A program made the translations under genes and the position numbers. Shown piece after piece: positions 3,801 to 63,504 of a stretch of DNA of 64,000 nt. Each line of letters starts with the position of its first letter. Position 1 is the first letter of the stretch. Origin of the DNA: Candidatus Omnitrophota bacterium (GTDB lineage: Bacteria > Omnitrophota > Gorgyraeia > Gygaellales > Profunditerraquicolaceae); NCBI GenBank assembly GCA_003598025.1, contig QZKH01000003.1, positions 234,048-298,047 of the forward strand, in the 5' to 3' direction. The notes beneath the pieces are model-generated. The model was not told where the DNA came from, ran no database searches, and saw only the letters and a list, made by a program, of their open reading frames with translations.

Positions 3801-4207
3801 AACTGGCTGACCACAACACGCTCATCGCCGTTGATTATAAAAGTACCTGTATCAGTCATCAATGGGATCTCGCCAAAATATGCATCCTGCTCTTTTGTGT
3901 CTTGCGGTGTCATCAACCTGAATTTTGCTTTTAACGGGGCAGCGTATGTCAATGAGCGCCTTTTTGATTCCAATACATCGTATTTAGGCTTACCCAGTGT
4001 ATAGCTGATAAATTCAAGCTTAACTGACCTGTCCTGACTCTCAATAGGAAATACTTCTTCAAATATCTCCTGAAGACCGCGGTTTCTGCGCTGATCAACG
4101 GGCTGATCCATTTGAAGAAATTCTTTGTAAGACTCCATCTGCACATCCAGCAGGTTAGGCAGATTATAGACTTCTTTCAGCTTACCGAAATTCTTTCTTT
4201 TGGCCAT
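803..4207 (-). CDS. rpoB: DNA-directed RNA polymerase beta subunit (1134 aa, compact form)
   Basis: Full-length ORF with characteristic beta-subunit motifs (e.g. ...[39 protein letters not shown]...) and a conserved C-terminus. It lies immediately downstream of rplL and upstream of rpoC. Confidence 0.95.
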
Positions 4208-4238
4208 ATTTAGCTACCTTCAGATTATTTTGTTTAAC

Positions 4239-4625
4239 TTATTTTAATTCAACCGTTGCACCAGCAGCTTCCAACTTTTTCTTCATCTCCGCAGCTTCGT
4301 CCTTAGCAACACCTTCTTTTATCGGTTTTGGAGCACCATCGACTAAGTCCTTGGCTTCTTTTAAACCCAGGTTGGTCATCGCGCGGACTTCCTTAATCAC
4401 TGCGATCTTGTTTGAACCAGCACTAGCCAAAACTACGGTAAAAGCACTCTTTTCCTCCTGTGCAGCCTGGCCAGCCTGTGCACCACCAGCCGCAGGCATT
4501 GCAGCCATCATAGGCATATTAGCCTGTACACCGAATTTTTCTTCGAGTGCCTTAACTAAATCAGCCAATTCCAAAACTGTCATGCCTTCAATTGATTTAA
4601 TCAGTTCTTCTGCCTTTGCGCTCAT
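4239..4625 (-). CDS. rplL: 50S ribosomal protein L7/L12
   Basis: 128 aa with an Ala-rich hinge and a conserved C-terminal domain ([28 protein letters not shown]). Only 31 nt separate it from the rpoB start. Confidence 0.95.
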
Positions 4626-14952: not shown

Positions 14953-16440
14953 CTAATTATTAATCGCTTCCACTAACGCCCTTGCTTTATTCAATGACTC
15001 ATTGTACTCTTTCTGAGGTAAAGAATCGGCGACTATACCGGCTCCAGCCTGGATATAAGCGTATCCATCCTTTAAAACTATAGTCCTTATTGTTATGCAG
15101 GTGTCCATATTCCCGGAAAAAGAAAAATACCCGATACAACCAGCATACGGCCCGCGCCTTACATTTTCAAGCTCATCAATTATCTGCATTGCCCTGACCT
15201 TAGGGCTTCCCGAAACGGTACCAGCCGGAAAACATGCCTTGAGAGCATCAAAACTTGACTTGCCCCTCTTAAGGTATCCGCTTACTTCCGAAACAATATG
15301 CATCACGTGAGAGTATCTTTCAATAGTCATAAATTCTGAGACTTTTACCTTGCCAGCCTGGCAAACCCTGCCTAAATCATTCCTGCCTAAATCCACAAGC
15401 ATTATATGCTCTGAACGCTCTTTAGCGTCATTTAAAAGTTCGGACTCCATTTTTTTATCCTGAGATTCATCCCTGCCCCGCGGCCTGGTACCGGCGATAG
15501 GCCTGGTCTGAGCAAAGCCATCCTCGCAACGAACCAGCATTTCCGGAGAAGAGCCTATCAGGCTGAACTTATCCATTTTTAGGTAAAACATATACGCGGA
15601 TGGGTTAATACTACGCAGTTTCCTGTAAATGTCAAAAGAATTTTTGTTAATTTTTATCTTCAATCTTTGCGAGAGGACAACTTGAATAATATCGCCTTTA
15701 TGTATATATTCTTTGGCTTTCTTGATAATATTCATGAACCCGTCTTTAGTAAAATTAGATCTTAATGTGATTTTATACGGCTTACGCTCCAGGGGACCAG
15801 AAACAGGCATGATTTTCTTAAATTTCATCTCTAAGTGATTGATCTCTTCAACAGCTTGAGAATACAGTTTTTTAACATAATTATTATTTTTGGCAGAACT
15901 TATTCGGGGTAAATAACAAATAGATATGATCTTGATTTTGTGCTTAAGATGGTCAAAGACCAGCAAGCTTTTGGTAAGCATAAACACCGAATCCGGCAGG
16001 TTAAGGTCATCTTTGTTTTTATCGGGAATGTCTTCAATAAATCTGACGGTATCATAGGAAAGGTATCCTATAAAACCTCCGTAAAACCTCGGCAGTCCGT
16101 TGACTTCAACCGGGTGGAAGTCACGCATAATACCTTCAAGCTCTTCAAGCGACCCCTTCGAGGTAACATAAGACTTGATCTTACCCATTGACGGCTTAAT
16201 GATTTTTATTTCTTTATCCCTATTAGAAAAAATCATATGGGGTTTTGTCCCCAGGAATGAAAACCTGGCTATCTTCTCCTGGCCTTCTACCGATTCAAGG
16301 AGGAATGAATATTTATCCTCTTGTATCCTTAGAAATGCTGAAACAGGAGTATCTAAATCAGCGTTTATCTCCTTAAACACAGGAATAACATTGCCCTTCT
16401 TAGCATATTTTAGAAATTGTTTATAATCAGGATAGATCAT
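14953..16440 (-). CDS. chorismate-utilising enzyme, anthranilate/aminodeoxychorismate synthase component I (TrpE/PabB family)
   Basis: 495 aa with chorismate-binding domain motifs (SPEMLVRCEDG..., PIAGTRPRG, GAVGYFS-like GCIGYFSFSG). No trp genes are adjacent, so TrpE versus PabB cannot be resolved. Confidence 0.8.
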   Translation of the reverse strand: MIYPDYKQFLKYAKKGNVIPVFKEINADLDTPVSAFLRIQEDKYSFLLESVEGQEKIARFSFLGTKPHMIFSNRDKEIKIIKPSMGKIKSYVTSKGSLEELEGIMRDFHPVEVNGLPRFYGGFIGYLSYDTVRFIEDIPDKNKDDLNLPDSVFMLTKSLLVFDHLKHKIKIISICYLPRISSAKNNNYVKKLYSQAVEEINHLEMKFKKIMPVSGPLERKPYKITLRSNFTKDGFMNIIKKAKEYIHKGDIIQVVLSQRLKIKINKNSFDIYRKLRSINPSAYMFYLKMDKFSLIGSSPEMLVRCEDGFAQTRPIAGTRPRGRDESQDKKMESELLNDAKERSEHIMLVDLGRNDLGRVCQAGKVKVSEFMTIERYSHVMHIVSEVSGYLKRGKSSFDALKACFPAGTVSGSPKVRAMQIIDELENVRRGPYAGCIGYFSFSGNMDTCITIRTIVLKDGYAYIQAGAGIVADSLPQKEYNESLNKARALVEAINN

Positions 16441-16458
16441 CTTTTAAATTATTTTATT

Positions 16459-16552
16459 CGTTCGAGTCCATAAAACCGCACATTTCAGGGTGCGGATGAA
16501 GTTTGAGCGTTCAGTATTTCGCTCCAAAAAATTTCGGGTTAAAGCCCGAGCA
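16459..16552 (-). repeat. about 100 nt intergenic repeat element, copy 2 (inverted relative to copies at 24447 and 62499); hairpin + T-tract acts as a terminator-like structure after hisI
   Basis: The reverse complement aligns with 24447-24546 and 62499-62597 (gggctttaacccgaa...ttggagcgaaatactga.cg...ccgcaccctgaaatgtgcggttttatgg). The hisI stop codon and last 5 codons (KLLGL*) lie within the element. Confidence 0.75.
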
Positions 16553-16886
16553 GCTTAATTTTTCTAAAGAAACAGCTTCTTTTGCCGGTATGGCAGGCAA
16601 CACCTACCTGTTTTACCTTGATCAATAAGGTATCCATATCGCAATCATAATAAATACTCTTAACAAACTGAAAATGGCCTGAAGTCATGCCTTTTACCCA
16701 ATACTCTTTCCTGGAACGCGACCAAAAACAAGTCTTTTTAAGCTTCAGGGTGCGTTTAATAGACTCTTTATTCATATAAGCAAGCATAAGCACGGCATTA
16801 TCCTTATAATCCTGGATAATGACAGGAATAAGGCCGTTACTATCAAATTTCAAATCTTTAATACTGACTTTTTTCTCTTTTTTCAT
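16539..16886 (-). CDS. hisI: phosphoribosyl-AMP cyclohydrolase (monofunctional)
   Basis: 115 aa of HisI fold with Cys ligands (...[26 protein letters not shown]). No fused HisE domain. Confidence 0.88.
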
Positions 16887-21347: not shown

Positions 21348-23962
21348 AATCTCATCTCTTTTATATATTTCTTGAACTCATTTATTGTTAATTCCAGATT
21401 CTCAGGTTTATCTCCACCGGCTTGAGCAAAATCCATCCTGCCCCCGCCGCTGCCGCCGATACTCTTTGCGATTATCCGGATAATACCGGAAGCATCCATA
21501 CCCCTCTGGCATAAATCATTGGTTAATCCGACCACCAGAAAAACCTTGCCATTGACAGAAGACCCTAAAATTATAGCAGAACTTGCGACTTTAGACTTGA
21601 GCAAATCAACAGTTTTTCTAAGTAATTCCATATCATAGCCATTAAGGATGTGCGCAATAATATTTATTCCGTTTATTGATTCCGAACCCTGGATCAACTC
21701 ATCGATATTCTGCCTGGTTATATTGAGCCTCTGAGAGTAAAGTTCTTTTTCAAGCTGCTTGAGCTTATCCTGCTTTTTATTAATCTCATCAACAATTTTG
21801 TCCTCTTCGACATTTAATATCGAACTTATTTGGGAGAGGGTGCGGGATTCTCTCTTGAGCAAATCATAAGCAGCATCGCCGGTTAAAGCCTCTATCCTTC
21901 TTATCCCTGAAGCCACCGAGCTCTCCTGAATAATCTTAAAAATTCCGATTTGCGATGTAGAAACCAAATGCGTCCCGCCGCAAAGCTCTTTAGATACATC
22001 TCCTATCTCTACAATACGGACATCATCTTCATATTTATCCCCAAAAAAAGCAAGGGCCCCGGTTTTCTTTGCCAGATTTAGCGATGTTTTCTTTACCCTT
22101 AAATCTATATTCTTAAGAATATAACTGTTTACAAGGTCTTCGATGCGCTCCAATTCCTGCTGGCTTAAAGCTTTAAAATGCGAAAAATCAAACCTGAGCT
22201 TATCAAAATCAACCAGAGAACCCTGTTGTTTTACATGCGCGCCCAGTATAGTCCTTAACGCTGACTGAAGAAGGTGCGTTGCAGTATGGTTCCTGGCAAT
22301 CGCAAGCCTTCTTTGAGCATCTATTGCAGAAACAACTTGGCTGCCCTTAATAAAACTGCCTTGCTCGACGTTTCCAAAATGCAAAATTACTTTGCCGATT
22401 TTCTTGGTATTTTTCACAGAAAAGACTGACTTACCTTTTACAATTTTTCCCGTGTCACCAACCTGCCCTCCGCTCTCTGCGTAAAAAGGCGATCTATCCA
22501 ATATTAATACTGCGCTATCTCCCTTTATGATTTTCTTGATTTCATCGTTATCTTTCAGAATCTTGATGATCTTTGACTTGCTTTCATGTTCATTATATCC
22601 GGAAAACCTTGTATCTTTGGCAACAGCTTTAAAATCACGGCTTTCAAATACATCGCCTTTCATAGCGCTCTGTACCTTTGAACGGTTTTTCTGCTCCATG
22701 ATGTTTGAATTAAGCTTACCCGTAGAAATATCTGCTTTATATTTTTCTTTTAGCCACTTAGCGGTAACCTCTATCGGCAAACCATAAGTATCATATAGCT
22801 GAAAGGCGATATCGGCATTCTCATCAGCATTGGAAGCAGACTCGGCATCCGCAAATTTCTCAGTAAGGTATTTATCGCTTGATTTCAATATATCGAGAAA
22901 ACTTTTTTCTTCGGCCAGAATAATTTCTGCGATATCCTCTTTTCTGCTGTTTAATTCAGGATATGGCTCAGACATTAACTTGGCGACTATAGGAGTTAAT
23001 TTGTACAGAAAAGGCCTTTTTACACCCATACTTACCATATGATAAACACTCTTACGTATTATTTTCCTGACGATGTATCCCCTTTTTTCATTCGAAGGCA
23101 TAACGCCATCATAAATAGAAAAAACTATTGCCCTGATATGGTCGGCGACAGCATTAATAAGCTCTGCCTCAGGTAAAACAACACTATTTTTAATCTCTTT
23201 TATAAGAGGGATAAAAAGATCAGTTTCAAAATTAGAATAGACCCCCTGCATTACCGCAGCCAGCCTTTCTAAGCCCATACCGGTATCTATGTTTTTATTT
23301 GGCAAAGGCTCAAGCAAACCCCCTTCCTTACGGTTAAACTGGGTAAAAACCAAATTCCATATCTCGACAAACCTGCCGCATGAACATCCGGGGCTGCATG
23401 AATCCTTACCGCAGCCAACGCCCTCCCCGAAATCATAAAATATTTCAGAACAAGGCCCGCATGGCCCATTAGGCCCTTTTTCTTTTGCTTCAGACGGCCA
23501 AAAATTATCCTTGTCTCCAAGTTTAACTATTTTATGGCTAGGAAGCTTTATGATTTTTAGCCATTTTTCATAAGCTTCGCTGTCATCCTTATAAACTGAC
23601 ACCCAAAGCCTGGATTCAGGTATCTTGAGTTCTTTGGTCAAAAATTCCCATGCCCAGCAAATCGCATCTTCCTTAAAATAATCACCGAAAGAAAAATTAC
23701 CCAGCATCTCAAACATCGTGTGATGGCAGGCTGTTTTACCCACCTTTTCCAGGTCATCAGTACGCAGGCATCGCTGGGCAGTAGCAGCACGCTTGAATCC
23801 GGAATTAAATCCCATAAATTCTTTCTTAAACTGGTTCATTCCGGCAGGGGTAAATAATACAGTATTATCATCATGCGGGATAAGGCTGTCGCTGGCGACA
23901 ATCTTATGCCCTTTCTGCTTAAAATACTGGAGAAATTTATTTCTTATTAAATCAGCTTTCAT
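21344..23962 (-). CDS. alaS: alanine--tRNA ligase
   Basis: 872 aa. Has a class-II catalytic core, an editing domain with HTATHLL, and a C-terminal DHHA1-like GGSGGG motif. Conserved recA-recX-alaS order. Confidence 0.95.
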   Translation of the reverse strand: MKADLIRNKFLQYFKQKGHKIVASDSLIPHDDNTVLFTPAGMNQFKKEFMGFNSGFKRAATAQRCLRTDDLEKVGKTACHHTMFEMLGNFSFGDYFKEDAICWAWEFLTKELKIPESRLWVSVYKDDSEAYEKWLKIIKLPSHKIVKLGDKDNFWPSEAKEKGPNGPCGPCSEIFYDFGEGVGCGKDSCSPGCSCGRFVEIWNLVFTQFNRKEGGLLEPLPNKNIDTGMGLERLAAVMQGVYSNFETDLFIPLIKEIKNSVVLPEAELINAVADHIRAIVFSIYDGVMPSNEKRGYIVRKIIRKSVYHMVSMGVKRPFLYKLTPIVAKLMSEPYPELNSRKEDIAEIILAEEKSFLDILKSSDKYLTEKFADAESASNADENADIAFQLYDTYGLPIEVTAKWLKEKYKADISTGKLNSNIMEQKNRSKVQSAMKGDVFESRDFKAVAKDTRFSGYNEHESKSKIIKILKDNDEIKKIIKGDSAVLILDRSPFYAESGGQVGDTGKIVKGKSVFSVKNTKKIGKVILHFGNVEQGSFIKGSQVVSAIDAQRRLAIARNHTATHLLQSALRTILGAHVKQQGSLVDFDKLRFDFSHFKALSQQELERIEDLVNSYILKNIDLRVKKTSLNLAKKTGALAFFGDKYEDDVRIVEIGDVSKELCGGTHLVSTSQIGIFKIIQESSVASGIRRIEALTGDAAYDLLKRESRTLSQISSILNVEEDKIVDEINKKQDKLKQLEKELYSQRLNITRQNIDELIQGSESINGINIIAHILNGYDMELLRKTVDLLKSKVASSAIILGSSVNGKVFLVVGLTNDLCQRGMDASGIIRIIAKSIGGSGGGRMDFAQAGGDKPENLELTINEFKKYIKEMRL

Positions 23963-24425
23963 AACTAGTAATTGAATCTATAATGAGGTTGGCAGGAAAC
24001 CCGCGCCTGGCAAGATACGAATAGAGCCTGTTCCTTCTTTTGCTTGGCTCCAGCTCAGCAAGTTGTTTTGATTTCTTCATTATCAAACCTTTGATTACTT
24101 CAGCCTCAGAATATTTCCCCGTTAAATCTTTTATCGTTTGATCAATAATATTATTCGAGACTCCCTTAAGCTTGAGTTCGTATTTTATTTTAGTAATACC
24201 GACTCCGCGGCTAATCCTGGTTTCAGCCCAATTCTTAGCAAATATATTATCATCGATAAAGTTATGCTCTAACAACCAGTTAATGACATTATTTATTACC
24301 CCTGCATCGTATTTCTTGCTTTTCAACCTCCGGGTTAATTCGGCAACGCTTCGCTGCCTGAATTTGAGAAGAAGAAAGGCATAATTCCTTGCCTTAATTA
24401 TCTGCGGGTTATCTATCTTGTCCAC
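23952..24425 (-). CDS. recX: recombination regulator RecX
   Basis: 157 aa helical-repeat protein with a GTG start. Lies immediately downstream of recA on the same strand. Confidence 0.8.
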   Translation of the reverse strand: MDKIDNPQIIKARNYAFLLLKFRQRSVAELTRRLKSKKYDAGVINNVINWLLEHNFIDDNIFAKNWAETRISRGVGITKIKYELKLKGVSNNIIDQTIKDLTGKYSEAEVIKGLIMKKSKQLAELEPSKRRNRLYSYLARRGFPANLIIDSITSYES

Positions 24426-24426
24426 C

Positions 24427-24546
24427 TGGTATAATTATGAAGCTCCCCGAGCTAAAGCCCGAGGTTTCTTGGAGCGAAATACTGAGCGTACACACTCCCT
24501 CCGCACCTTTCAAGGTGCGGTTTTTGTGGCCGCGAACTTATAAAAT
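24427..24546 (+). ncRNA. candidate small RNA / repeat element copy 1: extended -10 promoter (TGgTATAAT at 24427-24435) followed by about 100 nt conserved element ending in hairpin 24501-24520 + TTTTT
   Basis: Plus strand, antisense to the recA-recX spacer. Homologous copies lie at 62499-62597 (+) and 16459-16552 (-). Hairpin ccgcaccttt-caa-ggtgcgg is followed by ttttt. Confidence 0.5.
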
Positions 24547-24595: not shown

Positions 24596-25618
24596 CTAAA
24601 TCTTCTTCCTTAACTCTTTTTCGATTGTTTCCTGCAGTTTAGGATTTTCCTTAAGCAGTTTTATAGCTGCTTCTCTTCCCTGCCCGATTTTCTCTTCGCC
24701 ATAAGACAACCAGGCGCCGCTTTTGTTTACTATTTCGGCGCTGATCGCAGCATCAAGTATGCTGGCAGTCTTTGATATGCCCTCATTATGCATTATCTCA
24801 AACTCTGCTTCCCTGAAAGGCGCAGCGACCTTGTTTTTTACTACTCTAGCCCTTACCCGGTTGCCTATTACCAGGTCATCTGATTTCAAAGTGGCGATTT
24901 TTCTTAAATCTATCCTCACAGATGAATAAAACTTAAGCGCCCTGCCTCCGGGTGTGGTTTCAGGAGAACCGAACATAACCCCGATCTTCTCCCTTATCTG
25001 GTTTATAAAAACCATACATGTTCGTGATTTACTGATAGCGCCAGTCAATTTTCTTAAGGCCTGGGACATCAATCTTGCCTGTAAGCCTACATGCGAATCA
25101 CCCATTTCCCCCTCAATTTCAGCACGGGGAGTCAGCGCGGCGACAGAATCAATGATAACTAAATCAACGGCATTTGAACGCACAAGCGTCTCTGCAATTT
25201 CTAGAGCCTGCTCACCGGTATCCGGCTGAGAGATTAATAGATCATCCAGGTTAACACCAACGATTTTGGCGTAATTTGAATCAAAAGCATGCTCTGCATC
25301 AATAAATGCAGCTACTCCTCCTAACGATTGGATCTCTTTAATAAGCGACAACGTAAGAGTTGTCTTTCCGGAAGCTTCAGGGCCATATATCTCAATAACC
25401 CTTCCCCTAGGAAAACCGCCGACACCAAGGGCCAAATCAAGGGTTAATGCGCCTGTAGGGATAACTTCCACATTAACCTTTACATCTGAACCCAGTTTCA
25501 TTATGGAACCTTTACCGAATTGTTTTTCGATCTGCGATAAAGCCAATTCAAGTGCTTTTTGGCGGTTAGATAGGTCTTTTGCGGGATCCTTTTGCAAAAC
25601 TTTCTTATCTACAGTCAT
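24596..25618 (-). CDS. recA: recombinase RecA
   Basis: 340 aa with Walker [10 protein letters not shown] and a conserved L1/L2 region. Confidence 0.97.
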
Positions 25619-25677: not shown

Positions 25678-25848
25678 AATCAGTTAGTTCATAGTTCATG
25701 GTTCATAGTTGACAGATAACCTGGAATTCATCGGCCATAAAAACCATATAACTATGAACTGTGAACCATAAACCCTCCTTATCTATATGACGGATTAAAA
25801 ACCTAAATCTAACACATTAGTTCATTGTTCATGGTTGATGGTTGATGG
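25678..25848. repeat. arrays of tandem heptamers (TAGTTCA/TGGTTCA/TTGTTCA/TAGTTGA and complement TGAACTA) arranged as imperfect inverted arrays
   Basis: 25685-25712 holds 4 units on the + strand, 25750-25773 holds 3 units in inverted orientation, and 25818-25848 holds 4+ units. The recA-GGDEF divergent intergenic region is 458 bp. Confidence 0.85.
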
Positions 25849-26004
25849 ATAATATTATAAGCATATGGATTACATGGGTATCGCGTATATCGTGTTGAGT
25901 ATTGAGTATTATTCCTTCTTGCAGGCGAGTTAATAATTCACTGTTTAAGGCTCAAAGTTACTATTCTAATTATGTAAAACTTTGAACTATGAACTGGGTA
26001 CTTC

Positions 26005-26070
26005 TGTGTCCTTGTGACATTGTGTCTTTGTGGCTAGCTACTTTCTATGTTTCTATGAACTATGAACTAA
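26005..26070 (+). repeat. composite repeat (TGTGAC.TTGTGTC...TGTGTCTTTG..CTA.TACTTTCTATGTTTCTATG + 2 TGAACTA units), family 2; second copy at 42312-42406
   Basis: Aligns with 42312-42406 and partly with 31556-31594. Confidence 0.75.
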
Positions 26071-31519: not shown

Positions 31520-31594
31520 CAGTTCATGGTTGATAGTTCATTGTTCATAGACGTGGCTAATTTCTATGTACTACCAACCATGAACTATGAATTA
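31520..31594. repeat. heptamer arrays forming a 15-bp-arm inverted repeat (gttcatggttgatag ... ctaccaaccatgaac) directly 3' of etfA
   Basis: 31520-31547 holds 4 units in CAGTTCA/TGGTTGA/TAGTTCA/TTGTTCA form, and 31581-31594 holds units in TGAACTA/TGAATTA form. The etfA stop codon (31592-31594) lies in the last unit. Confidence 0.8.
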
Positions 31595-33611: not shown

Positions 33612-33640
33612 TTACTGTGAACAATGAACTGTGAACTATT
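33612..33640. repeat. heptamer array (TGAACAA TGAACTG TGAACTA) between acyl-CoA dehydrogenase stop and etfB start
   Basis: 3 units. The acd stop codon TAG (33636-33638, minus strand) lies inside the last unit. Confidence 0.75.
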
Positions 33641-34787
33641 TAGCCATCTCTTTTATCAACTGCAATGCAATTATATTCCTCTGGATCTGGTTTGTGCCCT
33701 CATAAATCTGGGTAATTTTTGCATCACGTACATATTTTTCTATCGGGTATTCTTTCATATATCCGTAACCGCCAAAAACCTGCAATGCATCCACAGTCAC
33801 TTTCATCGCGACATCTGAAGCATACATTTTAGCCATAGCTGATGCCTTAGCAACATCCTTTACCCCGGCATCAACCATCCTGGCAGTAGAATATACCAAT
33901 GCCCTGGCAGCTTCGATCTCGGTTGCCATATCAGCAAGCATCCACTGTATACCCTGGAAGCTGGAAATTGATTTACCGAATTGGTGCCTCTCCTTAGCGT
34001 ATCTTACCGCCAGTTCAAGCGCGCCCTGTCCGATTCCCAGAGCCTGGGCAGCAACACCCGGTCTTGACATATCAAATGTCCTCATTGTAACGATAAAACC
34101 CATTCCTTCTTTGGCTATAAGGTTTTCCTTTGGCACTTTACAATCAGTAAATATCAGCTCCCTGGTTGAGGAAGCGCGGATGCCGAATTTATCTTCTTTT
34201 TTGCCGAAGGTAAACCCCTTCATACCTTTTTCAAGAATAAAAGCTGAAGCGCCTCTTGCGCCTTTAGTCTTATCCGTCATTGCTATAACTACGTAAGTTT
34301 CTGCATCGCCACCGTTTGTTATAAAGTGCTTTAAGCCGTTTAAGATATAATGGTCGCCTTCTTTTTTCGCTGTCGTCTTTATTGCAGAGGCATCTGAGCC
34401 TGCTTCCGGTTCGGTTACGGCAAAAGCTGCCACTTTCTTACCGCTGGCAAGATCAGGCAGGTATTTCTTTTTTTGCTCTTCACTACCGAATAAAACTATA
34501 GGAAAGGTACCTAAGGCAGAGGCAGCATAGCAGACAGCAATACCGCCGCAGGCACGCGAAAACTCCTCGGTAGCGAGGCAGAGGTTCAAAACCCCTACTG
34601 ACATACCGCCAAATTCTTCCGGGATGAATAACCCAAACAATCCTGCCTCCGCTATTACCTTTATGACCTCCCACGGATATTCTTCGCTTTCATCATATTT
34701 AGCAGCTACGGGCCTGATCTTCTCTTCAGCTATCTTATGCGCCAGGTCCTTGACCATTTTTTGTTCTTCAGTCAACAAATAATCCAT
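33636..34787 (-). CDS. acyl-CoA dehydrogenase (short/butyryl-chain type)
   Basis: 383 aa of ACAD fold with the catalytic Glu region ([12 protein letters not shown]) and FAD-binding motifs. Adjacent to etfBA. Confidence 0.9.
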
Positions 34788-42311: not shown

Positions 42312-42406
42312 ATGTGACTTTGTGTCGTGTGTCTTTGCGACTGAATACTTTATCTATTTCTATGAACTATCAACTATGAACCATAAACTATGAACTATGA
42401 ACTAAA
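42312..42406 (+). repeat. family-2 composite repeat plus 6-unit TGAACTA heptamer array
   Basis: tgtgactttgtgtcgtgtgtctttgcgactgaatactttatctatttctatg, followed by TGAACTA TCAACTA TGAACCA TAAACTA TGAACTA TGAACTA (42363-42404). The stop codon of the upstream minus-strand gene (42395-42397) lies inside the array. Confidence 0.8.
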
Positions 42407-45886: not shown

Positions 45887-46882
45887 TTAATTCTCTCTTA
45901 GGATTTTTGCAGCAAGTTCCGGCGGCGTTGGCACGACGTAAAAACCTGAGCCCCATTCAAAACCAGCTAACCTGGTTAATTTAGGCATAAACTCTATATG
46001 CCAATGATAGCTGTCATAAACAGTATCTCCGTTAATCGGAGAAGAATGCACTATATAATTATAAGAAATATTTGAAAAAACTTTTTTTAGCTTGGTAACT
46101 GTATCCTTCAGGATTGAAGCTAATTCAGGTATCTCTGCATCTGCCATATGGCAGAACCTGCTATTATGAGCTTTAGGCATAATCCAGATTTCAAAAGGGA
46201 ACCGCGAAACGAACGGGCAAAAAGAAACAAAGTACTTATTCTCTATTATTACCCTTTCTTTTTCCTGAAGCTCCTGCCTGATTACATCACAGAAAATACA
46301 ACGGTCTCTATAGTCATAATAGTTCTTTGAACCCTTCAGCTCTTCTACCGCACTCTTGGGGACCATAGGAAGAGCGATAATCTGGGAATGCGGGTGCTCA
46401 AGAGAGGCGCCTGCTGCAGGGCCAAAATTTTTGAATATCATTATATATTTGAACCTGTGGTCCCGGGCTAAATCCCTTGCACGGGAGCAAGACATCGAGA
46501 TATAGCTTTCAATTTCGCTGTTAAGAAGACTGGGGATATCCTTATAATGGTAGGGGCTTTCAATCAATATTTCATGAGCGCCAACACCATTTGACATATC
46601 ATAAATGCCTACGCCTCTGCGGTCTAAATCACCTTCAATCTGTAAAGCCGGAAATTTATTAGGAACTACCCTTACTTGCCAGCCGGGAGAATTAGGTGAA
46701 GACCCATCGATCCTGACGGCATCGATCTCAGGCGGAGTCAGCTTTTCGTTACCATAGCAAAAAGGACAAATCCCGCCCTTAAAAGCATGCTGCTCATATT
46801 CAAAATCCGCAGGCAAGGCCGGATGGTCAGTATCAACAATTACCCATCTGCCGCCAATAGGATCCCTTCGTAACTCTGACAT
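45887..46882 (-). CDS. galactose-1-phosphate uridylyltransferase family protein (HIT-like, canonical HPH active site)
   Basis: 331 aa. Has the Zn motif CPFCYGNE and the nucleophile motif LEHPHSQII. This is GalT class I / ADP-glucose phosphorylase-like. Confidence 0.8.
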   Translation of the reverse strand: MSELRRDPIGGRWVIVDTDHPALPADFEYEQHAFKGGICPFCYGNEKLTPPEIDAVRIDGSSPNSPGWQVRVVPNKFPALQIEGDLDRRGVGIYDMSNGVGAHEILIESPYHYKDIPSLLNSEIESYISMSCSRARDLARDHRFKYIMIFKNFGPAAGASLEHPHSQIIALPMVPKSAVEELKGSKNYYDYRDRCIFCDVIRQELQEKERVIIENKYFVSFCPFVSRFPFEIWIMPKAHNSRFCHMADAEIPELASILKDTVTKLKKVFSNISYNYIVHSSPINGDTVYDSYHWHIEFMPKLTRLAGFEWGSGFYVVPTPPELAAKILREN

Positions 46883-46884
46883 AT

Positions 46885-47913
46885 CTATACCTCAACCTCT
46901 CTTAAATATTTAGCTGAATCTTCAGGCGATAAAGGACATATATAAAAACCTGTACCCCATTCAAAACCTGCTACCTTTGTTAGGCGCGGGATTATTTCGA
47001 TGTGCCAGTGATAATCATTATCAATGCTTTTCCAGTAACCAGACTTAGGCCTTCTAAACGGCGCAGTGTGTAAAACATAATTATAAGAAATATCATTAAG
47101 GCCTACCTTGATTTTTTGAAGTATCTTTTTCATAACTTTGGCAAGGTATAACCTATGTTCCGGCTCGATGTTGACAAAATCGCAGGAATGCTTCTTTGGC
47201 AAAATCCATACTTCAAAAGGAAACCTCGCCGCAAACGGCGTAATGGCAATAAACCCGTCTATATCAAGGATAACTCTTTCTTTAGATGACATCTCCTGGT
47301 TGATTAAATCACAAAAAATACACCTTTCATGGTATTCATAATAAAGCCTTGCGCCTTTAAGCTCTTCTTTGACTCTTTTTGGGTTAACAGGTGTTGCAAT
47401 AAGCTGGGAACGCGAATGTTTTAGCTTGCTGCCCCCGGCAGACCAGCCGTAATTCTTAAAAACTAAAACGTATTTAAAACGCTCATCCTTTTCCAGATCC
47501 CTTATGCGGTCAACATAACAGGCCAGTACCTTGGATATTTGCTGTTCTTCTAGATCAGCCATGTTAGCTATATGCTTATTCGTCTCGACAACGATTTCGT
47601 GCGCACCGATGCCGCTCATAAGATCATACAAGCCCCTGCCATGCCGGTCAAGCTGACCTTCAATCCTTAAAAATGGGGCAATACTCGGGACAACCCTGAG
47701 TTCCCATCCGGGGCTGTTTTTCGCAGAACCGGTTGGCCTGACAGCATATATTTCAGGGGGAGTTTGGGATTCATGCCCCTGGCAGAAAGGGCACGAAGGA
47801 GCTTCCTCCTGTCCATTCGTGGGGGCAATACCGAATTGATCTGGCCTGCGCAACCGCTCAGTTGCTACAATAACCCACCTGCCTATAATCGGATCTTTTC
47901 GTAATTCTGGCAT
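46885..47913 (-). CDS. GalT-family paralog with substituted active site (HSR instead of HPH)
   Basis: 342 aa, collinear with the downstream paralog. CPFCQGHE is retained, but the nucleophile motif reads LKHSRSQLI. Confidence 0.75.
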   Translation of the reverse strand: MPELRKDPIIGRWVIVATERLRRPDQFGIAPTNGQEEAPSCPFCQGHESQTPPEIYAVRPTGSAKNSPGWELRVVPSIAPFLRIEGQLDRHGRGLYDLMSGIGAHEIVVETNKHIANMADLEEQQISKVLACYVDRIRDLEKDERFKYVLVFKNYGWSAGGSKLKHSRSQLIATPVNPKRVKEELKGARLYYEYHERCIFCDLINQEMSSKERVILDIDGFIAITPFAARFPFEVWILPKKHSCDFVNIEPEHRLYLAKVMKKILQKIKVGLNDISYNYVLHTAPFRRPKSGYWKSIDNDYHWHIEIIPRLTKVAGFEWGTGFYICPLSPEDSAKYLREVEV

Positions 47914-59967: not shown

Positions 59968-60648
59968 TTAGCCTCCGAATCTGTATTTTATCATATAGAA
60001 AATAGCCCAAAAAGCATCATTGAGCCTTATTTTCTTGCCTTCTTTGTATGAACGCGGGATATATGAAACAGGGACCTCGATTATCCTGAGCTTACGTTTA
60101 ATTGCATTGCATACAATCTCAACGTCAATATCAAATCCATTTGCCTTTAAATCAAGGTTCAAAAAAGTCTTGCGCGAAGCCAGCTTATAACAGGTCGCAT
60201 AATCATTGAGCCTGCTTGAATAAAGCAAATTCAAGAACCCGGTAAGGGCTTTATTGCCAAGCCTGTGGAAGAATAACCCTTGATACCCCCCCAGGAACCT
60301 CACACCAAGAACCAGGCTTTCATCAGCGCAATCTTTGATGGCGCTGATTAATTTACGGTAATCTTCGGGATTATATTCCAGGTCTGCATCTTGTATCAAT
60401 ACATAATCTCCTGTTGCATTGCTAAGCCCGCTCTTAAAAGCAGCGCCCTTGCCCCTGTTGCTGGAATGATAAATAACTTTCAGGTTCAAAAGCTTTAATT
60501 CGGAAATAATACCCATTGTACCGTCTGTAGAGCCATCATCCACTACGATGATCTCTTTGTCGATATCAATACGCTGTATCTTCTCTATAACCTGCCTTAT
60601 TGTCTTTGACTCGTTGAAAACAGGCACTATCACTGATAATAACGGCAT
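59968..60648 (-). CDS. glycosyltransferase family 2
   Basis: 226 aa: LSVIVPVFNE...VVDDGSTDGT...QDADL. Confidence 0.85.
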   Translation of the reverse strand: MPLLSVIVPVFNESKTIRQVIEKIQRIDIDKEIIVVDDGSTDGTMGIISELKLLNLKVIYHSSNRGKGAAFKSGLSNATGDYVLIQDADLEYNPEDYRKLISAIKDCADESLVLGVRFLGGYQGLFFHRLGNKALTGFLNLLYSSRLNDYATCYKLASRKTFLNLDLKANGFDIDVEIVCNAIKRKLRIIEVPVSYIPRSYKEGKKIRLNDAFWAIFYMIKYRFGG

Positions 60649-60649
60649 T

Positions 60650-61345
60650 TTACTTCATCCTCTCTTTTAATGCCCAAAGATATATCCGGATATAATTAGG
60701 CAACAGCCTGAAAACCTTAAAACTGGATTTACCCTTTTCTCTTTCTTTCCATTTTGTGGGGACTTCTGTCACCTTGAAACCATTAAAATAAGCCCTTAAA
60801 GCCAGCTCCATCGATACCTCAAAGCCTTTAGAATAGATAGTTATGCCTTTAATAGCTTCCTTACGGTACATTTTAAAGGCATTTGCTATATCATGGGTAG
60901 GTACACCGATAAGTAAATGCACAGTAAAACCTCCTAACCGTGACAGCATAGCCTTGAATTTCGGCCCTCCCTGCCTCAAACCCCCTTTAATATATCTTGA
61001 GCCGCAAACAACATCATAACCCTGTATTATTTTATCATACATTTTATTGACAGTTTGAAGTTCGTCACACAAATCCGCCATTACCGGCAACAAAACATCT
61101 CCCTTGGCGTTTCCGATACCGCACATTATCGCATTAGCAAAGCCCCTCTCTTTTTCATTATTAACCAGCACTAAGTTAGGATAAGAAGTAGCTAATCTAT
61201 TTACCAATGCATGCGTATTATCGGTCGAATGGTCATTCACGACTACCAGCTCATGCTCTGGTAGCATGGCCTGTTCAAGCTTACTAATAACATCAGCGAT
61301 ATTTGCTTCTTCGTTATATGCAGGGATGATAATAGAGAGTTTCAT
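60650..61345 (-). CDS. glycosyltransferase family 2 (polyprenyl-phosphate sugar transferase-like)
   Basis: 231 aa: LSIIIPAYNEEANI...VVNDHSTDNT...MADL. Confidence 0.85.
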   Translation of the reverse strand: MKLSIIIPAYNEEANIADVISKLEQAMLPEHELVVVNDHSTDNTHALVNRLATSYPNLVLVNNEKERGFANAIMCGIGNAKGDVLLPVMADLCDELQTVNKMYDKIIQGYDVVCGSRYIKGGLRQGGPKFKAMLSRLGGFTVHLLIGVPTHDIANAFKMYRKEAIKGITIYSKGFEVSMELALRAYFNGFKVTEVPTKWKEREKGKSSFKVFRLLPNYIRIYLWALKERMK

Positions 61346-63504
61346 TTAATCAATTTGAATATTTTAATCGTATTATTAGAAAAAACCTCTTTAAATTCAC
61401 CGGGATGTTCAATTGCCCAGTAATATTCTATAGGAAATTCAATCTTTTCAGTCTGATGAAGAGAATAGATAAAAATGAAATCGGTATTACGCCTTTTAAG
61501 ATTGACCAGCCAAATATTATAATCGGCATTCCCGCGGTAATTATTTGGCTCATTTAAATTCTCATGTAATGAGGTAAAATTATAACCCCATTCGTATGAA
61601 CTGTCACTAAAATAATGGGGCATAGCCGGGTCGGTTTTATTGACCGAAACATAATAAACATTATTTTTAAAACCTGTGCCATAAAGCGGGTATACCACCG
61701 GCCTGCCGGCGTAGGCGATATTGTTTGATTGGGTATTATTATTGAGCCATTCCCAGGCATAGGTTGCTTCAGGCCAAAATCCTGAATATTCAACCATTTT
61801 TACATATCTTTTATATTCGTTACGTATATAGAATTTCTGGGCAAGGGTAAGCCCTAAAAAACAGCATAATGCTATTAAGGTTAATGCCCGAACATCCGGT
61901 CTGAATCTTAAAATCGAAGCCTGTCTCTTAATTAAAAAATAAAACAGGGCAAATGTAAGTAATCCGGAATTGGCCAATTCCCAATATGAGGATAACTCCA
62001 GGGACGGAAAAACGATACATAAAAAAATAATAATGGTAACTGCTTTTTTATTTATTCTGAGCTTCTGTATTAAAAAGAATGCGAGCACCATTCCTATAGA
62101 TAAAGCTGCAAATAAATACCTTAAATTAGCAAGGGGTATCACATACCTGTAGGTTAAATACATTAAAAAAGGCAGGATCGAAAAATAAAGCAAAAAATAG
62201 TCTTTTTTGGATTTATTCTTTACAAATATATAAACCGGGGCTATAAGCGAAGCCGGAAGGGTAAAAAATAACGTCTGCACGCCCAAGCCTTCATGGAAAA
62301 GGGCTTTTATCAGGCTATAATCTTCCGGTTTGAAATGAGCCCGGTAAATGACCGGCTCCATGACACCACGTAACAATCTAAAACCGAATAATTCTACATT
62401 AAGCGGATAAAGCGGGTTACCGGTATTTATATAATTCCTCAGATAAGAGTATCCTCCCAAAAACAGCACGGAAATAATAAAAAGAAAAATGGAGCTCATC
62501 GGGCTAAAGCCCGAGGTTTCTTGGAGCGAAACACTGAGCGGCCCAACTCCATCCGTACCTTTAAAGGTGCGGTTTTGTGGCCGCGAACGTATAAAACCCG
62601 CTTTCTTTATCTCTTTAAAAGAAATAAACACATATGGCATAAACAACAACAAACTGTAAGGCAGCCCTACAGTCTTAGTCCCCAGAAGAAGCCCGATACT
62701 TAAACCAAAAAGTATATTATTTTTTAGCGAAAATTCTTCATACAATAATAAAAGAAAATATAAAGCTGACAGGAAATAAAAACACACCATCAGGTCAACA
62801 TAAGCGATCTCCAGCTGTTTAAAATAATTTGGCATCAGCGAGAATAAAGATGCCGCAAATAATGAATAGGGCGAAGATACCCCTATCTTTCTTGCCAATG
62901 CATAAGTTGCCGTAAAGCTAAGCGCAAAAAAGGGAAGCTGCCCCAGGTCAGCGACAAATACGCTCCTAAAAGGCATGATAAGCCATAAGTAGAACAGGCT
63001 GCCATTTATTGGATAATACGAAGGGCTGGGATCGTCAAAAACCGTGATCGGGATGTTTAAATTCCTGTTTTTAAGCCATTCCACAGCAAAGGTAAAATGA
63101 TAATTTAAAGAATCCCAGCCAAAAGGCGGATTGAAAAGATTGATAGAAGATTTAATTACAACAAATCCCGTAATTGTAGAAATAGCTAAAAGTAATAATT
63201 TGCTTTTAAGTAGATCCCCAAGATTAGTTCTTACGTCCTTAATGGAAGGGTTAATTACCGGCCTATTAAAAACAAACATAGTTAAAAACATTATAATCAA
63301 ATTTAAATATATGAGATTTTCAAGGGTCAATGCCCCGGCAATACCTAAGGCCTGTTCTGACAGAATAATCTGCGAAACGTAAATAATAAATGCGCAGATC
63401 AGTGATTCGGCCAGGCCTACAGGCTTAAATCCCCTAAAGGTGATTAGAAAAGCATTAAAAATTACGATAGCATTCATAAATATGCAAGCAAGCAGCATTC
63501 TCAT
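61342..63504 (-). CDS. GT-C-fold membrane glycosyltransferase (ArnT/PMT-like) carrying an in-frame about 33-codon repeat-element insertion
   Basis: 720 aa with more than 12 predicted TMs and a C-terminal soluble domain. The segment IKKAGFIRSRPQNRTFKGTDGVGPLSVSLQETSGFSPM is encoded by repeat-element copy 3 (62499-62597). Confidence 0.6.
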   Translation of the reverse strand: MRMLLACIFMNAIVIFNAFLITFRGFKPVGLAESLICAFIIYVSQIILSEQALGIAGALTLENLIYLNLIIMFLTMFVFNRPVINPSIKDVRTNLGDLLKSKLLLLAISTITGFVVIKSSINLFNPPFGWDSLNYHFTFAVEWLKNRNLNIPITVFDDPSPSYYPINGSLFYLWLIMPFRSVFVADLGQLPFFALSFTATYALARKIGVSSPYSLFAASLFSLMPNYFKQLEIAYVDLMVCFYFLSALYFLLLLYEEFSLKNNILFGLSIGLLLGTKTVGLPYSLLLFMPYVFISFKEIKKAGFIRSRPQNRTFKGTDGVGPLSVSLQETSGFSPMSSIFLFIISVLFLGGYSYLRNYINTGNPLYPLNVELFGFRLLRGVMEPVIYRAHFKPEDYSLIKALFHEGLGVQTLFFTLPASLIAPVYIFVKNKSKKDYFLLYFSILPFLMYLTYRYVIPLANLRYLFAALSIGMVLAFFLIQKLRINKKAVTIIIFLCIVFPSLELSSYWELANSGLLTFALFYFLIKRQASILRFRPDVRALTLIALCCFLGLTLAQKFYIRNEYKRYVKMVEYSGFWPEATYAWEWLNNNTQSNNIAYAGRPVVYPLYGTGFKNNVYYVSVNKTDPAMPHYFSDSSYEWGYNFTSLHENLNEPNNYRGNADYNIWLVNLKRRNTDFIFIYSLHQTEKIEFPIEYYWAIEHPGEFKEVFSNNTIKIFKLIK
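62499..62597 (+). repeat. about 100 nt repeat element copy 3, inserted in-frame within the GT-C glycosyltransferase CDS
   Basis: About 85% identical to 24447-24546. The hairpin ccgtacctttaaaggtgcgg + tttt is retained. The -10 box is degenerate (aaaaat). Confidence 0.8.

Follow-up and report, generated by a model that had tools for sequence, protein, structure and literature searches.

An in-frame copy of a small dispersed repeat inside a gene for a predicted GT-C-type membrane protein of a Candidatus Omnitrophota bacterium

The host gene and the repeat copy within it

The DNA analysed in this study is a window of 64,000 nucleotides from contig QZKH01000003.1, part of a Candidatus Omnitrophota metagenome-assembled genome (MAG). 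Towards its end lies a gene for a polytopic membrane protein (RJP28954.1 at NCBI), here called the host gene, and inside this gene lies one of the three copies that the window holds of a small dispersed repeat, here called the element. The copies are numbered along the window, and copy 3, the one within the host gene, is read through by the open reading frame (ORF) on the strand opposite to its own. The coordinates of all features are collected in Table 1.

The host gene belongs to a glycan- or lipopolysaccharide (LPS)-type cluster that also contains genes for Wzy_C, GT9, GT2 and GT4 proteins and for sugar-nucleotide enzymes. Its product has 484 homologs at E <= 0.001; every homolog with a source name comes from Omnitrophota, and those listed share about 50% identity with the host protein and are mostly about 661-720 residues in length, with about 685 as the overall figure for the roughly 480 orthologs. 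As in the window, two family-2 glycosyltransferase (GT2) genes follow the homolog in L085, L086, L087 and L089, the four loci checked at the DNA level, and because this gene order is conserved the compared proteins are regarded as orthologs. The AlphaFold2 model of the host protein, calculated from a 26-sequence alignment, has a predicted template-modelling score (pTM) of 0.87. Its Foldseek matches, with a probability of 1.00 and TM-scores of about 0.35-0.49, include yeast and human STT3, PglB, PMT, ALG9 and ArnT; among the entries of the Protein Data Bank (PDB) are 6ezn_F (E = 6.9e-6), PglB (3rce_A; 3.5e-4) and ArnT (5f15; 4.5e-3). No family from Pfam or NCBIfam, PMT_2/ArnT included, is found in the host protein. 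The modelled structure supports its assignment as a GT-C glycosyltransferase at the level of the fold, not by sequence family. The description 'ArnT/PMT-like' in the first-pass annotation, an earlier reading of the bare sequence, is therefore appropriate for the fold and not for the sequence family.

The window was scanned with a covariance model (CM) built from 29 members of the element family. The model finds exactly three full-length copies, while shuffles of the window give no repeat match. Copy 3 is the best preserved of the three; it corresponds to exactly 36 codons (window 62595 down to 62488, residues 304-339), which encode the peptide FIRSRPQNRTFKGTDGVGPLSVSLQETSGFSPMSSI. The first-pass annotation had described a 100-nt copy at 62499-62597, lying wholly within the 720-residue ORF and adding about 33 residues between two predicted helices. 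Mapping of the ORF and its codons confirms that the copy is real, that it is entirely contained in the ORF and that the frame stays open across it. Its start, however, is at 62488, the first 11 nt (AATGGAGCTCA) having been missed, and the insertion comprises 36 element codons, with a net gain of 34 residues relative to the orthologs.

Residues are absent at the position of the insert in 23 of the 25 aligned orthologs. The gap in the orthologs spans query residues 303-336, compared with 304-339 for the element codons, so the ends agree within 1-3 residues (alignment slack), as had been expected for an insertion co-terminal with the repeat. In the AlphaFold2 model the insert is the longest low-confidence stretch, with a predicted local distance difference test (pLDDT) below 50 at residues 306-330 and no secondary structure, and it stands between the helices 280-304 and 335-361, which upholds the earlier placement in an interhelical loop. 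The loop formed by the insert is rich in Lys and Arg; the same loop in the orthologs consists of a few residues and is Lys-rich, and the loop following it, TGNPLYPL, is highly conserved. On the basis of these properties, the insert is probably located in a cytoplasmic loop of the modelled protein. Detection of peptides such as GTDGVGPLSVSLQETSGFSPM would mark translation through copy 3.

A repeat copy may also be spliced into a gene by an assembler, and contigs of the Ga0172 metagenomes do show chimeric flanks at the element, many of them breaking within it. For copy 3 such an artefact is extremely unlikely. Another contig, Ga0394679_014105, which differs in length (101 kb) and appears under two samples, shares 12,659 nucleotides with the window at 100% identity, insert included, a result that answers the earlier concern about mis-assembly. 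Both halves of the protein flanking the insert align to the same orthologs, so that the two flanks form one orthologous protein. Copy 3 is moreover a unique sequence, and because the nearest other window copy is only 86% identical to it, a repeat-collapse artefact is implausible.

The orthologs themselves bear other short in-frame inserts of 18-96 nt (Table 1). These are built of small hairpins such as TCCGCCTTCGGCGGA and CCCCGTTAGAGAA...TTCTCTAACGGGG, and their sequences are unrelated to the element; when the element was compared by BLAST with the inserts found in the L085, L086 and L087 orthologs, nothing significant was returned. In-frame hairpin inserts seem to be common in Omnitrophota. 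A longer insert of 58 residues, in sense orientation, occupies the very same loop as copy 3 in the ortholog P0078 (L085 3433-3606). Of the inserts of L085-L087, this is the only one to match the CM, weakly and in its 3' part (23 bits, with E = 0.009 for 121 kb and 3e-5 locally), and its tail resembles the element (...TTCATCC-hairpin-GGTTTTCTG.GCGAAGGT...). This insert is possibly a distant relative of the element that was independently inserted into the same permissive loop.

Table 1. Positions of the features described in the text (window numbering unless a locus is given)
Feature	Position	Strand	Description
Host gene	61342..63504	-	720-aa ORF; polytopic membrane protein with predicted GT-C fold
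Two family-2 glycosyltransferase genes	59968..61345	-	Pfam PF00535; directly downstream of host gene
Element copy 3	62488..62596	+	CM 115.5 bits, E 6e-24, full length 1-109; antisense to host ORF
Hairpin P2, copy 3	62499..62514	+	TCGGGCTAAAGCCCGA; enclosed by P1 (GCTC.../...GGAGC)
Hairpin P4, copy 3	62553..62576	+	CCGTACCTTTAAAGGTGCGG + TTTT; enclosed by P3; terminator-like on element-sense strand only
Element copy 2	24436..24545	+	CM 99.7 bits; intergenic between recA and recX, antisense to both
recA	24596-25618	-	
recX	23952-24425	-	
Element copy 1	16452..16560	-	CM 89.8 bits; most decayed, several broken pairs; between hisI and trpE, co-oriented with both
hisI	16539-16886	-	
trpE	14953-16440	-	
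Ortholog hairpin inserts	L085 2566-2616, 3718-3735; L086 3895-3948, 4054-4083; L087 565-660		
Heptamer runs	25685-25715, 25750-25775, 25818-25845, 25983-25996, 26052-26069; also 31558-31594, 33620-33656, 42328-42405		TATGAAC/GTTCATA
Direct repeats	45939-46071, 46943-47093		Families D2, D6

The element family: distribution, ends and structure

The three window copies differ mutually by 14-25%, copy 3 being 86% and 77% identical to the other two, and because of this divergence within one genome the insertion is not considered to be recent. The last seven codons and the stop codon of hisI (PRA-CH; window 16539-16560) are supplied by the 5' end of copy 1; the Pfam domain of hisI stops at residue 107 of 115. 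At the site of copy 2, recA and recX are usually co-transcribed, and the terminator-like hairpin of this copy does not face the recA-recX transcript.

The family was searched for with a 20-nt core pattern, TTGGAGCGAAAYACTGARCG, which does not cover the termini or the stem P3 described below. Among species-representative genomes, matches were obtained in four other Omnitrophota MAGs and in two labelled Planctomycetia, and five further matches look like chance. In metagenomes the pattern matches 73 loci, most of which contain the element; the scan of viral contigs gave no match. Samples Ga0172362-67, which represent one lake population, contain dozens of near-identical 108-nt copies between unrelated flanks, and at least 14 of their contigs terminate inside the element. 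Near-identical copies at unrelated sites, together with contig ends inside the element, bear the signature of a multi-copy element that has recently been active. Several sets of Ga0172 contigs have one flank of the element in common and not the other (L051/L055, L062/L084/L075, L053/L060 and L020/L035), a pattern due either to chimeric assembly at the repeat or to recombination among its copies.

Copies in the other Omnitrophota and in the two 'Planctomycetia' MAGs show 70-88% identity. Copy 3 and the L008 copy, which belongs to another species, are 88% identical, compared with about 50% for the host proteins; either the lineage of the element is strongly constrained or the element moves between genomes. 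On two related contigs labelled Planctomycetia (L009 5298-5407 and L021 4164-4273) the element occupies an orthologous position, with pstS on one side and the pst gene next to it on the other, the copies being several substitutions apart. Vertical inheritance of the element can persist over long periods, and, with the taxonomy as labelled, the element also exists outside Omnitrophota. This distribution bears on the possibility that the 36 residues are an old lineage-specific loop of the host protein and that the intergenic copies derive from its gene. The loop does vary in length among the orthologs, as the inserts of P0078 and P0101 illustrate. The 108-nt unit, however, is found in other genomes at more than 60 unrelated loci, most of them between genes and with either orientation represented, and has identical boundaries everywhere, and 23 of 25 orthologs are without the segment. 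The chance that the element originated from this gene is negligible.

Copies of the element are also found close to one another. Inverted dimers are arranged head-to-head with overlap (L078 2180-2359) or tail-to-tail (L048 311-547), a weak relative of 169 nt (35.7 bits) is situated 27 nt upstream of a canonical copy (L028 2113-2281 and L083 1054-1222), and in four contigs with two well-separated canonical copies (L031, L035, L043 and L053) both copies have the same orientation. These arrangements hint at clustering of the element and a possible strand bias.

The ends of the element are sharp (5' AATGAAGCTCC, 3' GGCCGCGAATGTATAAA) and its common length is 108 nt. The two ends are without complementarity, and no terminal inverted repeats are present. 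A target-site duplication of up to 12 nt was not detected, since the words shared by the flanks are no longer than in shuffled flank pairs. The flanks are alike only in their A residues: on the 5' side A is found in 98%, 77% and 50% of the copies at positions -1, -2 and -3, respectively, with background composition further out, and on the 3' side in 96% and 53% just past GTATAA. The two sides of a copy have only 1-3 A's in common. Among all fetched loci there is no autonomous parent in which the element termini are parted by an ORF. In a Pfam survey of 149 ORFs beside copies, no transposase, integrase or reverse transcriptase is recurrent, and the 25 most frequent families are housekeeping only. 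At the gathering threshold, Rfam 15 recognizes only two tRNAs in the window; for the element itself at E <= 10, the best sub-threshold match has 20 bits (E = 0.56). Literature searches for repeats or MITEs (short for miniature inverted-repeat transposable elements) of Omnitrophota found nothing. The element apparently represents a new and undescribed family of non-autonomous small dispersed repeats that resemble Rickettsia palindromic elements (RPE).

In the folded element, stem P1 (GCUCC/GGAGC) encloses hairpin P2 and is followed by the junction GAA. A 4-bp stem, AUAC/GUAU, which was predicted independently by RNAalifold, encloses UGA, stem P3 and GAAU. P3 (GCGGCC/GGCCGC) in turn encloses an internal loop and hairpin P4, then a U-tract. 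Three pairs of P2 and six of the eight pairs of P4 show changes on both sides; 94.6% of the alignment cells in these two hairpins are paired, compared with about 30-40% for partners shifted out of register, and their covariation score is reached by none of 500 shuffles. P1, P3 and AUAC/GUAU are invariant across the family, so covariation gives no verdict on these stems. P2 and P4 vary in length or carry nested inserts (L004, L018, L011 and L052), and hairpins are cleanly missing in L023, L052 and the 68-nt L054. The 68-nt core has the order AAUGAA-P1-GAA-AUAC-UGA-P3-GAAU-GUAU-AAA, and the termini and P3 are nearly invariant although they lie outside the search pattern.

Another mini-element, with a TCCCTCGACTTCGCTCGGGA-like sequence, occurs inside the P4 loop in L004 (approximately 670-715) and L018 (within 4181-4340) and in the P2 loop of L052 (within 246-362), which indicates that small hairpin units insert into one another. 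Several further candidates were considered and not adopted. The 5' AUGAA (62489-62493) could pair with UUCAU in the internal loop of P3 (62547-62551; columns 3-7 with 105-109 of alignment A4), and 88.6% of the cells pair, the sole double change being that of window copy 3 (AUGGA/UCCAU); the covariation of this pseudoknot is not beyond that of shuffles (202/500). A small peptide encoded by the element (ATG...24-aa ORF) was dismissed because compensatory hairpin changes and 1-nt indels alter or shift it. Likeness to the hammerhead, the k-turn or dif/Xer was discarded because the defining core positions mismatch, as judged by eye.

In the three window copies, a terminator-like hairpin with a T-run is present on the element-sense strand only. 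The hairpin and T-tract that the first-pass annotation had regarded as preserved in copy 3 are indeed intact, with terminator-like character only on the + strand, antisense to the gene. The degenerate -10 box proposed at the same time was not recovered: no sigma-70-like promoter is predicted in any of the three window copies, and copy 3 retains in full the 3'-terminal GTATAAA that the family conserves. Relative to the upstream gene, 21 copies have the same and 26 the opposite orientation, so that the element is not preferentially co-oriented. Sense copies are rarer both upstream of co-oriented genes (11 versus 28) and inside ORFs (3 versus 7). These counts, which are crude and partly redundant, fit selection against placing the terminator into a transcript, and copy 3 obeys the trend in that the non-coding strand carries its terminator-like side. 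Antisense copies are also observed right at the beginning of proteins that are secreted or belong to the outer membrane. In L064 (1404-2282) the element lies between MKK and the hydrophobic core of the signal peptide, and in L046, at a TolC-like ORF, an element-internal ATG after AAGGA could act as the start codon.

The conserved architecture raises the possibility that the element is primarily a structured RNA (a small RNA, ribozyme-like or retro-mobile) and that copy 3 is a nested antisense RNA gene able to modulate the glycosyltransferase. The near-invariance of core and ends, of which the pattern imposed only 20 nt, is in keeping with this, as are the covarying hairpins that change in length, accept inserts or drop out cleanly, the AUAC/GUAU stem added by RNAalifold and the terminator-like hairpin that ends the element. 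The copies of other species are also as similar to copy 3 (88%) as those of its own genome, which exceeds by far the likeness of the host proteins. This explanation is nonetheless unlikely. The element is devoid of promoter-like sites, within it or at it, and of an Rfam match, and its orientation to neighbouring genes is without bias towards co-transcription. Counts of G-U against A-C wobbles (26 versus 20) were uninformative as a strand call and single out no strand, and the stems that never vary are without covariation support. Covariation in the hairpins is equally expected for DNA hairpins recognized in single-stranded form, and dozens of identical copies in one population speak for selfish spread. 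There is a comparably small chance that the element belongs to a new class of mobile element, based on a structured RNA (ribozyme-like or retro-mobile) or dependent on host machinery, with a 68-nt core kept by function. Such a class, if real, would explain the likeness across species, the precise loss and expansion of hairpins without loss of the core and the lack of an accompanying transposase.

Reading frame, fate of the host gene and origin of the insertion

Three of the six frames of the element consensus are without stops (one sense and two antisense), compared with an expectation of about 1.1 (P around 0.07). Because the length is a multiple of three and half of the frames are open, about half of random intragenic insertions would keep the frame open. 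Most copies are intergenic, and read-through ORFs are found at about 10 of 61 distinct loci. Homology supports two of these, in addition to the host gene. In a PfkB kinase (L018) the Pfam profile is broken at positions 32/33 by the element, which is read in the same antisense frame as copy 3. In a DUF4062 protein (L053) the element is read in the sense frame, and a 90%-identical homolog (P0121, L088) is without the 34 residues. The filled and empty sites of the latter, GCGCAAA[ATGAAGC...GTATAA]ACACAAG and GCGCAAAAGAAGCACAAG, are A-rich and too unclean to define the cut.

Considering how often a random insertion would leave the frame intact, an open frame by itself says little, and the insertion may have inactivated the glycosyltransferase with the frame remaining open by chance. 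A dead gene is quite improbable in view of the protein encoded. Among the residues that never vary in 25 orthologs, 127 in all, the host protein retains 125 (51 of 51 on the N-terminal side of the insert and 74 of 76 on the C-terminal side), a number equal to the leave-one-out median of the insert-free orthologs themselves. The divergence of the copies marks the insertion as not recent, and in the time elapsed a pseudogene of 2.2 kb would have gained stops or frameshifts; the operon partners are also intact. Because the invariant residues are retained, the host gene is, judging from its sequence, still subject to purifying selection while carrying the insert, and we infer that the 720-residue protein is made with the extra loop and is active.

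Copy 3 is very probably a non-autonomous mobile repeat that inserted in frame and is translated as a loop tolerated by a conserved GT-C protein. In the events envisaged, a repeat of approximately 108 nt would have inserted antisense into the glycosyltransferase gene, at a site encoding a short cytoplasmic loop that joins two transmembrane helices. The frame would have been kept by the addition of a whole number of codons and by an orientation and phase corresponding to one of the three stop-free frames of the element, with the terminator-like hairpin and T-tract on the non-coding strand. The element would then be co-transcribed and translated with the gene, giving a disordered loop of 36 residues. 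Several observations weigh against this account. The 36 element codons are accompanied by a net gain of only 34 residues, both here and in L053, which does not exactly fit a simple pure insertion. The same loop is also extended by inserts in the orthologs P0078 and P0101, and its length is thus variable by itself. With the nearest ortholog only about 50% identical, both the precise junction and how old the insertion is are reconstructed from comparison with orthologs, and production and activity of the 720-residue protein are deduced from its sequence.

As for its movement, the element may have been mobilized in trans by a structure-recognizing single-strand DNA enzyme of the HUH/Y1 type, in analogy to elements derived from IS200/IS605 and to repetitive extragenic palindromes (REPs). 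This route is favoured because inverted repeats and duplications are lacking and the hairpins are subterminal. It is a tentative proposal that we regard as somewhat doubtful: P2 and P4 are unlike each other, the 5' flank is A-rich with no fixed target of 4-5 nt and, in the Pfam survey of neighbouring ORFs, no transposase was found next to any copy.

The insertion extends the RPE phenomenon, in which selfish repeats are translated as extra loops of conserved proteins, to Omnitrophota, a poorly known and mostly uncultured group, where in-frame insertion is recurrent (the GT-C enzyme, the PfkB kinase and the DUF4062 protein). For annotation, the element accounts for length outliers in protein families and for contig breaks in metagenome assemblies, and it is a compact and sharply bounded motif for which a covariance model is at hand. 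The many recent insertions in Ga0172362-67 make its mobilization, and the question of whether the core acts as RNA or as single-stranded DNA, amenable to testing. Its interest would increase if the conserved core were a functional RNA or defined a new mechanism of mobilization.

Other repeats of the window are of a different kind. Heptamer runs of TATGAAC/GTTCATA, such as TAGTTCATAGTTCATGGTTCATAGTTGACAG, take up the intergenic DNA upstream of recA and recur at three other places. A regulator may bind to them, perhaps as direct repeats resembling SOS boxes. The direct repeats of families D2 and D6 are 75-77% identical and lie about 1 kb apart.

Comparison with known systems

Small self-cleaving ribozymes that occur in repeats resemble the element in that their junction nucleotides are conserved, their stems covary and differ in length and they exist in multiple copies. 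The element differs from them in belonging to no Rfam family, and the hammerhead core CUGANGA...GAAA is not in the required arrangement according to our own reading. Small dispersed repeats that are recognizable mainly by a terminator-like hairpin and a T-run are known to cluster and to insert into one another (PMC10969869). The terminator-like hairpin and T-run of the element and its nested and clustered units are similar, a likeness drawn from description. In the element, however, an additional conserved stem, P3, surrounds the hairpin, which is only a single module within a larger conserved structure.

Elements derived from IS200/IS605 and the REP/REPIN-RAYT systems resemble the element in the lack of inverted repeats and duplications, in subterminal hairpins and in a strand-asymmetric structure. 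Unlike in these systems, P2 and P4 differ in sequence, an invariant target of 4-5 nt to the left of the element is lacking, the consensus is without a GTAG/CGTC tag and the hairpins are dispensable in some conserved copies; no tnpA or RAYT was found near any copy, the survey covering the 25 most frequent Pfam families of 149 neighbouring ORFs.

MITEs such as Correia/NEMIS, ERIC and those of cyanobacteria can be intragenic, form in-frame fusions and carry regulatory signals (PMC10969869). The element is likewise small, non-coding, non-autonomous and present in multiple copies at different loci. The defining features of MITEs are inverted repeats at the termini and duplication of the target site (TA in the case of Correia). 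The element has no inverted repeats and no duplication beyond 1-3 A's, and no parent insertion sequence (IS) with the same ends was found. Because the inverted repeats and the target duplication are both missing, the element is not of the Correia type, nor is it a classical MITE, and of the two comparisons made in the first-pass annotation only that with RPE is apt, for the mode of action.

RPE are approximately 100-150 bp in length, have predicted hairpins and no coding capacity of their own, and their mechanism of transposition is not known; they are recurrently found in frame inside unrelated genes, to which they add a peptide compatible with the fold (PMC10969869). The element differs in its host, which belongs to another phylum (Omnitrophota), in its mostly intergenic copies, in a core that is 70-88% conserved over very divergent hosts and in modular hairpins that can be absent. 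Sequence homology to the RPE families of Rickettsia is unlikely; the likeness is one of mode of action, established by description and not by comparison with the sequences of RPE-1 to RPE-10. In this mode of action the two agree closely: the element is read through in frame in the GT-C gene, the PfkB kinase and the DUF4062 protein, and its peptide lies in a loop (pLDDT < 50) of a conserved host protein the orthologs of which are without the segment.

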